This document shows positions 21,986 to 52,119 of a stretch of 64,000 nt of DNA, piece after piece. The translations under genes were made by a program, and so were the position numbers. Source of the DNA: a virus; the IMG/VR virus record IMGVR_UViG_3300042553_000685. One strand, given 5' to 3'. Each line of letters starts with the position of its first letter. Within the stretch, counting starts at the first letter, position 1. Below the pieces are notes generated by a model. It ran no database searches. It saw nothing but the letters and a program-made list of their open reading frames with translations, and was not told the DNA's origin.

Positions 21986-22312
21986 TCACACGTAGGCGGC
22001 CTGCTCACTCCTGAAGATATCAAGTAGGGGATCGATAGTAGATCTAAGGCCAGCCATGAGATGGCGAGCTGCATCAGTAGGTAGGCCCCGCCACCAGCGT
22101 TGCACCTTCTCCTGAGCCCAATCGAGGCCCAATCGCGTCATAGTGCACTGTAGTGTGCGCTCAAGCAGGCGGGTGAACTGAGCGAGGGGGCGTATATCAC
22201 CACTATCGGTACCGTAGTGTGCTACCCACTGAGAGGGGTCAGCGATAACCTCAGGATTCTGAGTAGCGTAGGCCAGGAGTTTATTCTCGATGGGGTTAAA
22301 TACAGAAGCCAA
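21986..22312 (-). CDS. hypothetical protein, possibly 5'-truncated by the adjacent IS (108 aa)
   Basis: ORF begins with TTG directly at the compositional break to the IS607-type element. Confidence 0.4.
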   Translation of the reverse strand: MASVFNPIENKLLAYATQNPEVIADPSQWVAHYGTDSGDIRPLAQFTRLLERTLQCTMTRLGLDWAQEKVQRWWRGLPTDAARHLMAGLRSTIDPLLDIFRSEQAAYV

Positions 22313-22365
22313 AAACCTAACTAATATTATCCAAAATTACTCATGACTTGTGCTATAATAGTTCT

Positions 22366-22974
22366 ATGAGTAAGTTAACCATATCGGAAGCCGCTAAATT
22401 GAAAGGTGTAAGCGTATCGACGTTAAGGCGTTGGGAGTCTGAAGGTAAACTAATTCCAGAACGGACTGCTAATGGGCATCGTCGTTATACAATTTCTCAG
22501 TTGCTTGGTTTAAAAGAGAATCTCTCTTATACTGTTGGCTATTGCCGTGTTTCTAGTCATGACCAAAAGAAGGATTTAGAACGTCAAAAAGAAGTTGTCG
22601 AACTGTTTTGCGCTCAAAACGGTTGGCAAGTTGAAATTATAGACGACCTAGGTTCAGGACTTAACTACAACAAAAAAGGATTAAAGCGATTAATTCGGTT
22701 GATTGTTGATAGTAAAGTAGAGAGATTAGTCTTAACTCATAAGGATAGATTACTTAGATTTGGTAGTGAATTAATCTTTAGTCTGTGTGAGCAATTCGGG
22801 ACTGAAGTTGTCATTATTAATCGAACTGAAGACAGTACATTTGAGGAGGATTTAGCACAAGATGTCTTAGAGATTATTACGGTATTTTCCGCTAGATTGT
22901 ATGGCTCTAGAAGCCATAAAAATAGAAAAATCGTAGAGGAGTTAAGAGACGTTGCTACTAGGATTCAAGACTGA
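22366..22974 (+). CDS. tnpA: IS607-type transposase TnpA (MerR-like HTH + serine recombinase)
   Basis: LTISEAAKLKGVSVSTLRRWESEGKL (HTH) and YCRVSSHDQKKDLERQ (catalytic Ser motif); start at ATG 22366. Confidence 0.9.
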   Translation: MSKLTISEAAKLKGVSVSTLRRWESEGKLIPERTANGHRRYTISQLLGLKENLSYTVGYCRVSSHDQKKDLERQKEVVELFCAQNGWQVEIIDDLGSGLNYNKKGLKRLIRLIVDSKVERLVLTHKDRLLRFGSELIFSLCEQFGTEVVIINRTEDSTFEEDLAQDVLEIITVFSARLYGSRSHKNRKIVEELRDVATRIQD

Positions 22975-24124
22975 GTTAAAACTAAATAATCAACAACGCT
23001 CATTATTAGCCCAACACGCAGGAACCGCACGTCATGCTTGGAATTGGGGTTTGGCTTTAACCAAGCAAATTTTAGACCATAATCAAGCTAACCCTGATGA
23101 AAAAATCAAGTTTCCTACGGCTATTGACCTTCACAAATGGTTGGTAGCATTGGTAAAATCAGAGCATGATTGGTATTATCAAGTGTCTAAATGCGCCCCC
23201 CAATGGGCGTTAAGAGCTTTATCCGATGCTTGGAAAAGATGCTTCAAGAAGATAGCCAAACCACCAAATTTCAAGAAGAAAGGTAAACAGGATAGTTTCA
23301 CTTTAGATGGGAGCATTAAAGTTGCTCATCAAAAGATAAAAGTTCCTGTAATTGGTTGGTTAAAAACTTACGAGCGGCTACCCTATGGATACCAGCCAAA
23401 ATCTGTCACTATTAGTAAAAAAGCTAATAGGTGGTTTATTAGTTTTAAGATGGAAGTTGAACAGCAAACAACCAATAAAACTCATGATGTAGTTGGTTGT
23501 GATCTGGGAATTAAATCTTTAGCTACTTTATCGACAGGGGAGACGTTTGAAGGCTCTAAAAGTTATCGTAAATACGAAAAACAATTAGCCAGACTTCAAT
23601 ACTTGAACCGACATAAGGTAAAAGGTTCAAATAATTGGAACAAAGCCCAACGGCAAATAGCTAAACTTCATTTTAAAATAGCTAATATCCGTAAAGATAC
23701 GTTACATAAACTCACCACTTATTTAGCCAAGAACCACGGCCAGATAGTAATTGAGGATTTAAATGTGTCTGGGATGATGGCTAATCACAAATTAGCTAAA
23801 GCCGTTCAGGATATGGGGTTTTACGAGTTCCGAAGACAACTTGATTATAAAACTCAGTTGTATGGTTCGGAATTAATCATAGCCGATAGGTGGTTTCCTA
23901 GTAGTAAAACCTGTTTTAATTGTGGGTACAAGAAAGAGTCTCTATCTTTAACTGAAAGAGTTTTTGAGTGTGAACAATGCCATGCAGTTTGCGGTCGAGA
24001 CTTGAACGCTAGTCTAAATCTAGCTTCTTTGGCGGTGAGTTCCACCGTGTCAGCTTGTGGAGTAGATAGTGCCGACACTACTACAGTGAAGCAGGAAGTT
24101 AACGTCAAATTTGCTCATGAGTAG
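22952..24124 (+). CDS. tnpB: TnpB (OrfB_IS605, RuvC-like + zinc ribbon) RNA-guided nuclease family
   Basis: GCDLGIKSLATLS, IVIEDLNVSGM, CFNCGYKKESLSLTERVFECEQCHAVCGRDLNASLNL; TTG start overlapping tnpA end. Confidence 0.9.
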   Translation: MLLGFKTELKLNNQQRSLLAQHAGTARHAWNWGLALTKQILDHNQANPDEKIKFPTAIDLHKWLVALVKSEHDWYYQVSKCAPQWALRALSDAWKRCFKKIAKPPNFKKKGKQDSFTLDGSIKVAHQKIKVPVIGWLKTYERLPYGYQPKSVTISKKANRWFISFKMEVEQQTTNKTHDVVGCDLGIKSLATLSTGETFEGSKSYRKYEKQLARLQYLNRHKVKGSNNWNKAQRQIAKLHFKIANIRKDTLHKLTTYLAKNHGQIVIEDLNVSGMMANHKLAKAVQDMGFYEFRRQLDYKTQLYGSELIIADRWFPSSKTCFNCGYKKESLSLTERVFECEQCHAVCGRDLNASLNLASLAVSSTVSACGVDSADTTTVKQEVNVKFAHE

Positions 24125-24285
24125 ATTTGAGTAGGTTTAATAGAACGGTCTTGAAACAGTGGGTCATTTGCTGTATAATTGGTTTATTGCGGGTGCGGCG
24201 CAAATGAACCTTGAAAACTCCATAGCGTATGGCCTTTACCACTGGGCGGTTCGAATTAATCTTAAACCCTACTAGGGATTGAAAC
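24125..24285 (+). ncRNA. putative omega-RNA scaffold / right-end region of the IS607-type element
   Basis: Position immediately 3' of tnpB, where TnpB guide-RNA scaffolds are encoded; ends in the repeat-like hairpin at 24249-24285. Confidence 0.35.
24249..24285 (+). CRISPR. solitary 37-nt CRISPR-repeat-like sequence
   Basis: GTTCGAATTAATCTTAAACCCTACTAGGGATTGAAAC has a GTT start, a CCCTA/TAGGG palindrome and an ATTGAAAC 3' handle. It closely resembles 37-nt repeats of cyanobacterial type I-D/III arrays as I recall them. Single copy in the window. Confidence 0.6.
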
Positions 24286-24333
24286 CTCATAAGACGGCTC
24301 AAAGTGATTCGATTCCGCTATTCTGCATACAGC
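24286..24333 (+). pseudogene. tRNA-Met 3'-half copy (anticodon loop to 3' end plus flank)
   Basis: ctcataagacggctcaaagtgattcgattccgctattctgca matches positions 32-73 of the tRNA at 25448-25520, with differences clustered in the variable loop and T-stem. No 5' half is present. Confidence 0.8.
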
Positions 24334-24724
24334 GTTAGAGCAAAACCCACAACGTCATATAAGTTAAACCTATGAGTCACTATCAAAGTACCATTCCACC
24401 CTCTGGGGCAAACCTATTAACTATTGATTGCACTCTATGCTGGCGTTACTTAGTATAGAGTATAATATTGTATATCGATAAGTTATACTTATCAATTAAC
24501 CACAGCTTCTCTCACCTCAGATAGATATGCCCATAACATACAGTTATAATATATAACAATTCAAACATAAATAATTGGGGTTTTTAATACAGCGTTGTAA
24601 ATACGGCAAATATCGCCATATTTAGCTATATTTAAACAAATATTAAGCTATCAAATGCGAGCGAAACCTAGGCAGAGAGATAGACAAGAGTGAGTAGCCA
24701 CTCAATTATTAAGGAGATATAGGC

Positions 24725-24886
24725 ATGTCAAAAACAGTATTAGCTTTATATGTGACCCTTACCGTGTTCATAGTGATTCTAATGTATATAATGATATCAA
24801 TCATATCTGCTGGAGGGCCCGCCAGCGATACATGTAGTAGAGTGTGTAGCCACTCAATTATTAAGGATATACAAGCATGTCAATAA
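24725..24886 (+). CDS. 53-aa membrane peptide (tandem paralogue 1)
   Basis: Hand translation MSKTVLALYVTLTVFIVILMYIMISIISAGGPASDTCSRV...; AAGGAG RBS; upstream leader gtagccactcaattattaagga duplicated at 24845. Confidence 0.45.
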   Translation: MSKTVLALYVTLTVFIVILMYIMISIISAGGPASDTCSRVCSHSIIKDIQACQ

Positions 24887-25089
24887 CAGTAATAGCGTTA
24901 AATGTAGTCTTTATCGTATACATAGTGTTCCTGATGTATCTAATTCCTAGAGTAGGGCCCCGCGCTAGGTGGGGCCTTGTCGCGTTAATATGCGTCATAG
25001 CGTTGGTATGGATATCGATCATGTCTAATGGAGGGCCCGCCAGTGATACATGTAGTAGAGTGTTCCACTTCTCTATATCTAGGCTATAA
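24877..25089 (+). CDS. 70-aa membrane protein (tandem paralogue 2)
   Basis: ORF track; shares leader, N-terminus MS.T.. and GGPASDTCSRV with paralogue 1. Confidence 0.5.
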   Translation: MSITVIALNVVFIVYIVFLMYLIPRVGPRARWGLVALICVIALVWISIMSNGGPASDTCSRVFHFSISRL

Positions 25090-25150
25090 CACTACTTAAT
25101 ACTTGTAGCGCGGTAGTAGTAGTAGTAGTGGTAGTGGTAGTATATAGAAC

Positions 25151-25190
25151 GAGGCCCGCGTCATAATAAGGAGGCCCGCGCCATAATAAG
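25151..25190. repeat. 2 x 20-bp tandem repeat
   Basis: gaggcccgcgtcataataag / gaggcccgcgccataataag; preceded by a (gta/gtg)n run at about 25113-25142. Confidence 0.8.
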
Positions 25191-25210
25191 GATAAGTGGA
25201 ATAGTGTAAC

Positions 25211-25233
25211 CGACTCCGCTGTCCTGCATACAG
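25211..25233 (+). pseudogene. short tRNA-Met 3'-end fragment
   Basis: cgactccgctgtcctgcatacag matches T-arm/acceptor 3' strand and the tacag flank seen at 24328-24332. Confidence 0.6.
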
Positions 25234-25266
25234 TAAACCTTATCAAGAATTAAACTCAGGAGGAAG

Positions 25267-25398
25267 ATGTTGATTTTATTGCTTTCGCGGATTGGTGGAT
25301 TAATCTTCTCTATGATTTTGCTTCACAGGCTGTTACATCACTTCTATGTAGCGGCGTGGGACAAGAATACAGATAGATTGATAAGAAAGGGTAAGTAA
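25267..25398 (+). CDS. 43-aa membrane peptide
   Basis: Hand translation MLILLLSRIGGLIFSMILLHRLLHHFYVAAWDKNTDRLIRKGK; CAGGAGGAAG RBS. Confidence 0.45.
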   Translation: MLILLLSRIGGLIFSMILLHRLLHHFYVAAWDKNTDRLIRKGK

Positions 25399-25447
25399 CA
25401 ACATACTAGATATAACGCGGCCCCCCCCAATTAGGGCCGCACCACAA

Positions 25448-25520
25448 GCAGGATTGGCCGATAGGTGGAGGCACCGTCCTCATAAGACGGCTTAGAGCGG
25501 TTCGATTCCGCTATCCTGCA
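25448..25520 (+). tRNA. tRNA-Met (anticodon CAT; could alternatively be a lysidine-type tRNA-Ile2)
   Basis: Hand-folded cloverleaf. Acceptor GCAGGAT/ATCCTGC is perfect; D arm is GCCG..AGGC; anticodon stem is CCGTC/GACGG with loop CTCATAA; T arm is AGCGG-TTCGATT-CCGCT; discriminator A; no encoded CCA. Confidence 0.85.
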
Positions 25521-25574
25521 TTCAGTAATATAAGGGGCCCCCCTATTAGAAATACCATAATACTAAGGAGAGCT

Positions 25575-25865
25575 ATGAAAGTATTAACCTCTTACGTCTT
25601 ATATCCATCACCAGACGAGCAGATCAACATTAAGAGGTATGCGTGCTTTGTGAAGCATATCATCAGTGTAGAGATTGATATGGTAATGTGGCCCAATAAT
25701 AGGGCCCGCAGTGTCCAGCTGATGAGATACCTGTTCGACACACTGAAGCTACAGTATACAGAACACGAGGATGGGTTTATGATCAGATTGCATAAGTTAG
25801 TATATACTGATGGCTCTACAGCACTAATAGTGCCAACGGCATATACAGACAAACTACTACGTTAA
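25575..25865 (+). CDS. hypothetical protein (96 aa)
   Basis: ORF track; AAGGAG RBS. Confidence 0.5.
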   Translation: MKVLTSYVLYPSPDEQINIKRYACFVKHIISVEIDMVMWPNNRARSVQLMRYLFDTLKLQYTEHEDGFMIRLHKLVYTDGSTALIVPTAYTDKLLR

Positions 25866-35551: not shown

Positions 35552-35975
35552 ATGGATCAAGCAGATGAAATAAAAAAAGGACACTCAAATCTATCAAATA
35601 CTAATTGATTCAAGCTATGATGAGTTGCCAAGAGAAGTCAAACACTACGTCAACCGATTAGTAACTAAAATATCGAAAAAACCTTTTGTACTTTCAATAC
35701 TAAAAGGATTCCATAGTAGCGCAATCAAATCAAACGACGTAGATGTACTTTTAAGCGGTGCGTTTATTGACTATGATCCATTTAAAAGAGCAGGATGTTT
35801 TTGGTACTTAAAAATCAAGATATTTCTGTTTGTCTTTTCGCTACTAACAGGTGTGACAATACCTAAGCTTCTCAAAGAAAACTTTTGTCTTTTTCTGCGA
35901 TCTGTTGTTATAGTTAGTTACCTTGTAAAGGAGGGTTATGTCAATGAATCTCCCTATTATTGGGACTACGAATAA
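35552..35975 (+). pseudogene. membrane protein paralogue of 36015..36416, disrupted by 1-nt indel in an A7 run
   Basis: The ATG at 35552 opens MDQADEIKK, then stops. Shifting one base in aaaaaaa (35572-35578) joins it to DTQIYQILIDSSYDELPREVKHYVNRLV, which is collinear with the neighbour's N-terminus. Confidence 0.55.
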
Positions 35976-51472: not shown

Positions 51473-51690
51473 ATGTTGCACACAATAGGTCTAGCGCACC
51501 AACGTAACGGAGGATGTTTCCCTCCGTCCTACTCGCTGGCGGCGTCCACTAGAGTCAGAATTAACCTACCGCGCTTGACGTAACCGATGTCAAGTCTTGT
51601 ACATTTAGCCCTATCTTGTTTACTTGAAATGTCGGTTTGAAGGCTCTCGGTTTTACCGATGAGATGAAAAGCCGACCAGTATAGAACGGC
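51473..51690 (+). ncRNA. putative omega-RNA/right-end region of IS607 element B, and/or left end of the neighbouring IS605-type element
   Basis: Structured: ACGGAGG/CCTCCGT hairpin (about 51518-51540) and nested hairpin GTCGGTTT...AAAGCCGAC (about 51632-51677). Confidence 0.3.
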
Positions 51691-51699
51691 GAAGCACGA

Positions 51700-52119
51700 T
51701 TAATATTCTGGGGAGTCTTGGCTCTCCACATATTTTTTAAGTTGATCTATCGTAACGCCACCACAACTAGCCACAAAGTAAGCTCCTGTCCATAATACTC
51801 TCTTGTCTTTCCAGTAAATCTTCTTTAAATGGTCACTGTAGTTATCCCACAAAAGCTTGCTTGAAGTAGATTTCAAATTAGCAATTAACCCGCTTAGTAA
51901 TTTATGGGGGGGATAAGTTAAAAGAATGTGGACATGGTCAGACTCACCGCTAAACTCTACGATACTGGCATCCCATTTATCAGCAATAGACTTAAAAGCC
52001 TCATTTAAGAACTCTAAATGTTCTTTCTTGAATACTTTTCTCCGATATTTAGTCACCAACACTATATGAACAGTAAGATTAAACGTAGCCCTGCGGGTCT
52101 TAAAGTAATTGGGTTCCAT
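51700..52119 (-). CDS. tnpA: IS200/IS605 Y1 (HUH) transposase TnpA
   Basis: LTVHIVLVTKYRRKVF, SDHVHILL (HUH), TGAYFVASCGGVT (catalytic Tyr region); start set at MEPNYFK (52119). Confidence 0.9.
   Translation of the reverse strand: MEPNYFKTRRATFNLTVHIVLVTKYRRKVFKKEHLEFLNEAFKSIADKWDASIVEFSGESDHVHILLTYPPHKLLSGLIANLKSTSSKLLWDNYSDHLKKIYWKDKRVLWTGAYFVASCGGVTIDQLKKYVESQDSPEY

Follow-up and report, generated by a model that had tools for sequence, protein, structure and literature searches.

A Microcystis type I-D CRISPR leader and solitary repeat in a Ma-LMM01-like phage genome, probably captured by spacer-protospacer recombination

The locus and its insertion sequence

The window analysed here is the whole stretch of 64,000 nucleotides from one viral record (IMG/VR IMGVR_UViG_3300042553_000685), and its backbone is 82-89% identical to the Microcystis myophages of the genus Fukuivirus (Ma-LMM01, MaMV-DC, MaMV-DH01, MaMV-CH01/02 and MaMV-DL01/02). 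The homology of these relatives to the window backbone ends on the left at about position 22294 and starts again exactly at 24285/6, and the window is without the 1.3-2.6 kb of phage DNA that the relatives have between these two points. The interval holds an IS607-family insertion sequence, part of a CRISPR leader and one CRISPR repeat, and half of a tRNA-like sequence follows (Table 1). A second, unrelated TnpB-type insertion sequence also occurs in the family; its end matches window positions 51619-51701 at 93%, and copies of 402-409 aa are found in relatives at the same variable locus (L091, 1712-2941, and L084, 2301-3509), which makes the locus a hotspot for insertions.

Table 1. Features at the repeat locus of the window and related elements
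Feature	Position	Strand	Basis or remark
Remnant ORF, in the stretch homologous to Ma-LMM01 gp051	21986..22312	(-)	Backbone homology ends at ~22294; relative without the interruption reads GATGGGG/CTCAC here
IS607-family insertion sequence	22293..24148	(+)	Ends set by >12 copies in Microcystis, Cyanothece and Crocosphaera; flanks unrelated in each
tnpA, in IS607	22348-22974		MerR HTH and serine resolvase (Pfam)
tnpB, in IS607	22952-24124		OrfB_IS605 and Cas12f1-like TNB domains (Pfam)
Repeat-proximal 100 nt of Microcystis type I-D CRISPR leader, phage-captured	24149..24248	(+)	Identity to host leaders
Promoter-like site of the leader, TTGAAA-17 nt-TATAAT, towards the repeat	24151..24179	(+)	11/12 to the sigma-70 consensus
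PAM GTT (24182-24184) and protospacer (24185-24220) of the spacer in contig L098	24182..24220	(+)	35/36 identity
Solitary type I-D CRISPR repeat (host DR1b with C5G), GTTCGAATTAATCTTAAACCCTACTAGGGATTGAAAC	24249..24285	(+)	Match to DR1b, fold, CRISPR-DR5
3' half of tRNA-Met-like pseudogene, phage backbone; first ~36 nt at spacer position	24286..24333	(+)	Homology of relatives resumes at 24285/6
Intact phage tRNA-Met(CAT)	25448..25520	(+)	ARAGORN; only tRNA called in the window
Hairpin-plus-handle remnants in relatives	L003 1426-1438; L086 4263-4277; L089 194-208; L098 3284-3298

The limits of the insertion sequence were set by its other copies. A scan of representative genomes returned 80 IS607 loci, with copies 94-99% identical in Microcystis and about 83% identical in Cyanothece and Crocosphaera, and all of these start at window position 22292-22294 and end at 24148/9 with the last bases ...TTTAATAGAACGG, an end that the Ma-LMM01 copy shares. 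The original prediction had put the repeat where the right end of the IS should be, and one of its three readings took the repeat hairpin for the 3' end of the TnpB omega-RNA, with the tRNA half as the TnpB guide. Like such an end, the repeat lies just downstream of tnpB and on the same strand, with 124 nt between the tnpB stop (24124) and its first base. However, the alignment of other copies that the prediction had proposed places the true right end at 24148, so that the repeat is 100 nt outside the IS; the flanks of the copies are unrelated, none of these includes the repeat, and the 37-mer was not found within 4 kb of any host IS607 copy at up to 8 mismatches. In addition, five phage contigs have the repeat but not the IS. 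The omega-RNA reading is refuted by the common end at 24148 in copies with unrelated flanks, none of which has the 37-mer, and its probability is practically nil. A flank-derived TnpB guide is predicted to begin instead at 24149 (TCTTGAAACAGTGGG...).

The copy of IS607 in Ma-LMM01 is 98% identical and lies at a different locus, adjoining the primase gene. The first 12 nt past the right end are TCTTGAAACAGT in the window (24149-24160) and CATTCAAACAGT in Ma-LMM01 (L001, 4850-4861), identical at 9/12 positions; this similarity was not seen in the host copies and may be due to chance, target preference or shared history.

The solitary repeat and the host leader

A search of the window at up to 3 mismatches finds the 37-mer a single time, against 0 matches expected from shuffled sequences, and allowing up to 11 mismatches adds no other copy. 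The subtype I-D repeat of M. aeruginosa is DR1, GTTCCAATTAATCTTAAACCCTATTAGGGATTGAAAC, of which the variant DR1b has CCCTACTAGGG (Yang 2015). The window repeat is identical to the published DR1b at 36/37 positions, the sole difference being C5G at position 24253, and to the first repeats of 18 host arrays at 34-36/37. The single-copy 37-nt CRISPR-type repeat described in the original prediction is thus borne out as Microcystis I-D DR1b, the similarity to known CRISPR repeats on which that description turned having been found. A hairpin (24267-24277) and an 8-nt 5' handle (24278-24285, ATTGAAAC) are predicted as in the host repeat; C5G is outside the predicted stem and leaves the predicted fold identical. 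Cas6d would be expected to cut between 24277 and 24278. In an Rfam scan at E≤1, CRISPR-DR5 matched the repeat from end to end at a sub-threshold score (29.4 bits, E=0.048), and no match to any family was obtained in the whole window at gathering thresholds. With one repeat only, the window has no array of at least two repeats with spacers of 33-40 nt. What is present has the features by which solitary repeat units are recognised, namely a full-length host-like repeat (≥90% identity) in an intergenic position with no partial repeat within 100 nt; the only ORFs that overlap the repeat are short and unsupported.

The 100 nt before the repeat (24149-24248) are identical to the leaders of the 18 host arrays at 87-94 of 100 positions, and to the phage contigs L089, L090, L091 and L107 at 100/100. 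In the first three of these, which are IMG/VR contigs, the repeat and the tRNA-half junction are also identical to the window, and the sequence upstream runs ...CGCCCCTTATCCCGTAAGGTTTTGCGGGG/TCTTGAAAC. Directly upstream of the 100-nt stretch in phage contigs stands CTTATCCCGTAAGGTTTTGC, which is the published primer MaeCRf2, designed on the leader of the Microcystis I-D array. A metagenome scan with this 20-mer gave 18 contigs in which 2-122 I-D repeats come 104 nt later, as well as two further phage contigs, L098 and L107. The identity to host I-D leaders together with the primer site in the sibling contigs identifies 24149-24248 as the repeat-proximal part of a host leader. Its promoter-like site is directed towards the repeat and lies within 250 nt upstream of it; host leaders have hexamers of the TTGAAG/TATGAT type at this position. 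Transcription is predicted to start near 24186, and the predicted transcript 24186-24345 contains no structure besides the repeat hairpin (z = +0.5). No terminator-like site was found after the repeat.

IS607 follows directly after GCGGGG inside the captured leader and has removed the distal leader from the window. Import of the IS together with the leader is ruled out by five phage contigs (L089, L090, L091, L098 and L107) that have the leader-repeat-tRNA junction with the leader uninterrupted, and no interruption by the IS was found among the host leaders examined. On these two observations IS607 was inserted into the captured leader later, by an event that the comparison marks as unrelated to the repeat. 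In uninterrupted relatives both IS junctions of the window fall at G runs (GATGGGG/CTCAC and TGCGGGG/TCTTG), which fits insertion at a single site and loss of the intervening DNA, with the events in either order. Since IS607 sits in the captured leader, the predicted flank-derived TnpB guide at 24149-24168 is TCTTGAAACAGTGGGTCATT; it matches the unoccupied leaders of sibling phages exactly and host I-D leaders with 1-5 mismatches.

The capture junction and related elements in the family

The sequence that follows the repeat belongs to the phage. Positions 24285/6-24328 align with 25478/9-25521 of the intact tRNA-Met at 88.6% identity, from tRNA position 32, where the anticodon loop begins, and the claim that tRNA-Met 3'-half homology begins at the repeat boundary within this loop is therefore confirmed. 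At the same place MaMV-DC, CH01, DL01 and DH01 have a complete, degenerate tRNA-Met paralogue, which reads ...GGCACCGTC/CTCATAAGACAGC... across the corresponding point. This paralogue was not called by ARAGORN in any relative, nor was 24286-24333 in the window. The right junction of the window is the repeat end joined to CTCATAAG, and in the four relatives CTCATAAG is immediately preceded by GTC. Interference by the M. aeruginosa I-D system uses the PAM 5'-GTH-3'. In the intact tRNA-Met, positions 25479-25514 differ from the sequence at the spacer position by four mismatches (positions 15, 17, 20 and 22) and are likewise preceded by the PAM GTC (25476-25478). At the left junction the phage sequence (...CAAGCGGGGCCCCCATAG) and the host leader (...AACGCGGGGCGCACC) share a microhomology of GCGGGGC.

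The side and orientation of the PAM were checked internally with 714 unique spacers extracted from the fetched host arrays. Five of the 714 match phage sequence, and the trinucleotide on the 5' side is GTT in three cases, GTC in one and ATT in one. None of the 714 unique spacers matches the tRNA half, and the donor array is accordingly a proposed one.

There is also a third sequence similar to the 3' end of a tRNA, CCGACTCCGCTGTCCTGCATACAG, at 25208-25240, between the pseudogene half and the intact tRNA-Met, and sequence is duplicated within the region from 24.7 to 25.1 kb of the window, two small ORFs (24725-24886 and 24877-25089) being part of the duplications. In an Rfam scan of 24000-25600 the intact tRNA at 25448-25520 scored 52.8 bits against a cut-off of 29; the whole-window scan missed it, probably through a filter effect of the large search.

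The PAM GTC directly before the junction in the relatives of ancestral type points to an origin by recombination, and the explanation that these sequences make most likely is capture through an exchange between a spacer of the host and the matching protospacer of the phage. The host would have acquired a spacer from the phage tRNA-Met pseudogene, which would make the donor spacer CTCATAAGACGGCTCAAAGTGATTCGATTCCGCTAT. A patch of host DNA, consisting of about 138 nt of leader and the first repeat, would then have taken the place of about 95 nt of phage sequence through two crossovers, one within the ~36-nt homology of spacer and protospacer and one at the GCGGGGC microhomology. By this exchange the PAM would have been replaced by the repeat end AAC, and the phage would have been freed from that spacer. 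IS607 would have entered later at a GG of the captured leader that closely precedes the -35 box, with loss of the adjacent phage DNA on the left. Among the earlier readings was a recombination scar that had imported host DNA including the IS; this is supported for the repeat and the preceding 100 nt, which are host leader and adjoin the position of the PAM GTC in relatives, and fails for the IS, which was not imported. Taken as a whole, it is probable that a Ma-LMM01-like phage captured the leader and first repeat of a host I-D array by spacer-protospacer recombination, and that the resulting locus can be used by host Cas proteins.

Repeat-derived elements are present at this locus in the other phages as well. 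In Ma-LMM01 the stretch that the window has lost contains a mini-array (L002, 1711-1890; positions 35763-35942 of the record) of three I-D repeats, which end in GAAAA and enclose spacers of 36 and 33 nt; it is on the opposite strand, behind a TTGACA-17-TATAAT promoter. The annotation of the Ma-LMM01 record describes this mini-array only as a '56 bp repeat unit', with which the hypothetical genes gp049 and gp050 overlap. The first spacer of the mini-array finds matches in relatives at 1-2 mismatches, with GCC at the PAM position. Two-repeat I-D mini-arrays with a TTGACA-17-TATAAT promoter of their own were found in MaMV-CH01 (L084, 3827-3939) and MaMV-DL01 (L085, 3782-3894). Their 39-nt spacer is matched at 39/39 positions, next to the PAM GTT, in the array-promoter region of Ma-LMM01, DH01, L089, L098 and L107; the carrier's own copy differs by four mismatches at positions 7-10, and that of MaMV-DC by four at positions 30-33. 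Neither the CH01/DL01 spacer nor the first spacer of Ma-LMM01 has its matching site in the window, which has lost the region concerned. MaMV-DC, DH01, L089 and L098, which are without a full mini-array at the site, have a 22-nt remnant of hairpin plus handle, AATCCCTA(G/C)TAGGGATTGAAAC. In L091, positions 1629-1641 fall inside a further partial repeat ending in GAAAT. Every family member examined has at least the hairpin recognised by Cas6 and the handle at this locus, and on comparison of the sequences the repeat-derived elements recur there family-wide through at least two independent acquisitions.

The order in the sibling contig L098 (6197-6400) is leader, repeat, the 36-nt sequence TATTGCGGGTGCGGCGCAAATGAACCTTGAAAACTG, repeat and tRNA half. 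Both repeats carry the phage-specific C5G, as is expected if the phage's own repeat was duplicated by integration of a spacer. The 36-nt spacer is identical to the captured leader (window 24185-24220) at 35/36 positions and differs only at position 36. In L098 itself the PAM of this site is changed from GTT to ATT, and 42 nt are deleted across the rest of the protospacer and the leader-repeat junction. This pattern, which is the one expected from uptake of a self-targeting spacer followed by escape, suggests that the locus engages both host adaptation and host interference, although the structure, seen in one metagenomic contig, could also have arisen by a duplication and two subsequent deletions.

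Possible present role and comparison with known systems

If the leader promoter is active, it would transcribe the repeat, and host Cas6d would cut the transcript 8 nt before the repeat end. The expected products are a leader RNA that ends in the repeat hairpin and a crRNA-like RNA that consists of the ATTGAAAC handle and the tRNA half. The locus would also be usable by the host adaptation machinery, as L098 indicates, and would amount to a zero-spacer, host-Cas-dependent mini-CRISPR locus on a phage. The fullest form of this proposal is that of a live phage CRISPR locus without spacers at the start, which recruits the host I-D Cas1-Cas2-Cas4 for spacer uptake during infection and host Cascade for use of these spacers in conflict among related phages of Microcystis, or else is an RNA that inhibits a bacterial I-D system, which would be the first of its kind; it is put forward tentatively, as possible but short of an even chance. 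If it is true, L098, CH01/DL01 and Ma-LMM01 represent successive states of the same kind of locus.

The main alternative to such activity is that the element records a one-off escape from a host spacer and that leader and repeat are now without function. Loss of the PAM alone explains selection of the recombinant, and lineages have survived both the IS insertion in the leader and the 42-nt loss of L098. Conservation also agrees with this. A count of differences per 137-nt bin, with the window set against L089, L090, L091 and L107, gave 0 for the leader-repeat bin and also for some backbone bins, so that the leader-repeat is fully conserved among these phage contigs but not significantly above the neighbouring backbone. 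However, six contigs, each from a different sample, have an intact promoter, hairpin and handle, and separate acquisitions have brought repeat-derived elements to this locus at least twice; a mere scar is on balance somewhat unlikely. Unlikely too is an RNA anti-CRISPR of the Racr type, in which the promoter-driven repeat RNA would divert Cas6d and Cas7d from the crRNAs that target the phage. The published features of candidates of this class (a lone repeat of host type that lies between viral genes and has a promoter no more than 250 nt away) are all found here, and the hairpin and handle have been kept across the family; moreover, the authors of an infection transcriptome study of Ma-LMM01 suggested that CRISPR-Cas may be ineffective although the host has matching spacers, an observation that is compatible with inhibition and goes no further. 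Against this, conservation is no higher than in the backbone, and every host array makes the same leader-repeat RNA without inhibition, so that dosage would have to be the mechanism.

The original prediction had also considered a repeat-spacer unit that produces a guide. In this case an RNA of handle and tRNA half would lead the host's I-D Cascade to siblings of the phage that retain the ancestral GTC-flanked pseudogene. A single upstream repeat could suffice for such a guide, since the I-D crRNAs of Synechocystis mature to 39-45 nt species with a 5' handle only and are thus trimmed at the 3' end. The CH01/DL01 spacer, which is perfect in five relatives next to GTT and mutated in the carrier in parallel to SPV1/SPV2 (see below), and the escape signature in L098 lend further support. 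After position 10, however, an indel separates the guide from the known relatives, and no perfect target was found among them. The only near-match flanked by a PAM is the family's own tRNA-Met, with its four mismatches, which is awkward for an active guide, and there is no downstream repeat to provide a 3' hairpin bound by Cas6d. A one-guide mini-array is accordingly regarded as doubtful. Finally, the repeat might be an attachment site for integration of the phage into a host array, as in Streptococcus phage AP1.1, for which a phage-borne host repeat is what the mechanism needs. This is very improbable, because the relatives have been cultured as lytic phages, as stated in part of the literature on them, because no integrase is among the annotated genes next to the locus in the relatives, and because an attachment site leaves the PAM-precise junction and the accompanying leader unexplained.

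Whichever of these roles applies, capture of the host leader and repeat bears on several questions. Phages of the Ma-LMM01 family shape Microcystis blooms, and among the CRISPR systems of Microcystis type I-D has been called an influential one; the element is a concrete candidate reason why matching spacers may fail against Ma-LMM01. The legible capture junction is evidence from the field for a transfer of CRISPR parts into phages by spacer-protospacer recombination. The leader-preceded solitary repeat and L098 bear on a question raised for archaeal viruses, namely whether spacers can be added to a viral repeat that stands alone. Reconstitution of the Microcystis I-D system in E. coli, where it already serves as a genome-editing tool, makes the decoy and guide hypotheses directly testable.

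The closest precedent for the capture itself is spacer-mediated recombination between phages and CRISPR loci, reportedly demonstrated by Varble in 2019 (Nat Microbiol) in the laboratory with staphylococcal type III systems, where it is said to have led to transduction of CRISPR loci. As there, a spacer and its protospacer provide the homology for an exchange between phage and array; the present case differs in that it is a natural phage genome, which has retained the leader and first repeat. Viruses with solitary repeat units or mini-arrays have been described before, and so have I-D units on viral contigs. No earlier description of CRISPR repeats in Ma-LMM01-type phages was found in the literature searched, although a mention in the Ma-LMM01 genome paper or in Kuno 2012 is possible. 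The new points are a bacteriophage whose element includes the leader of its host, a junction from which the mode of capture can still be read, and a sibling contig that seems to have acquired a spacer.

Solitary repeat units and RNA anti-CRISPRs are described in Faure 2019 and Camara-Wilpert 2023 (PMC10651486), and the data of the latter list I-D units on viral contigs. The window resembles them in that a single repeat of host type lies between viral genes, behind a promoter, and differs in that the promoter is that of the host's own leader and that inhibition is here a candidate role. The Microcystis repeat was not found among the I-D units in the available part of the supplement of Camara-Wilpert 2023 (PMC10651486). 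According to a 2023 review, the archaeal AcrID1 is the only known I-D anti-CRISPR. The Nostoc cyanophage N-1 has a CRISPR array with spacers that was reported as functional (Chenard 2016, PMC4916379), and N-1 is likewise a cyanophage with host-type CRISPR repeats and without cas genes; the present locus differs in consisting of a leader and one repeat, and in its host and subtype. The mini-arrays of the Saccharolobus viruses SPV1 and SPV2 contain spacers that match sites near the array in sibling viruses, while the carrier's copy is mutated or deleted (Medvedeva 2019, PMC6858448). As in SPV1 and SPV2, the virus studied here is without cas genes, and its repeat and promoter-bearing leader resemble those of the host. 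The likeness extends to the relatives CH01 and DL01, whose spacer matches related viruses while their own copy is mutated, and L098 has a self-derived spacer with escape changes. In contrast to SPV1 and SPV2, the present case concerns a bacterial myovirus and subtype I-D, and the window has one repeat, no repeat-flanked spacer and a capture event that can be read at the junction.
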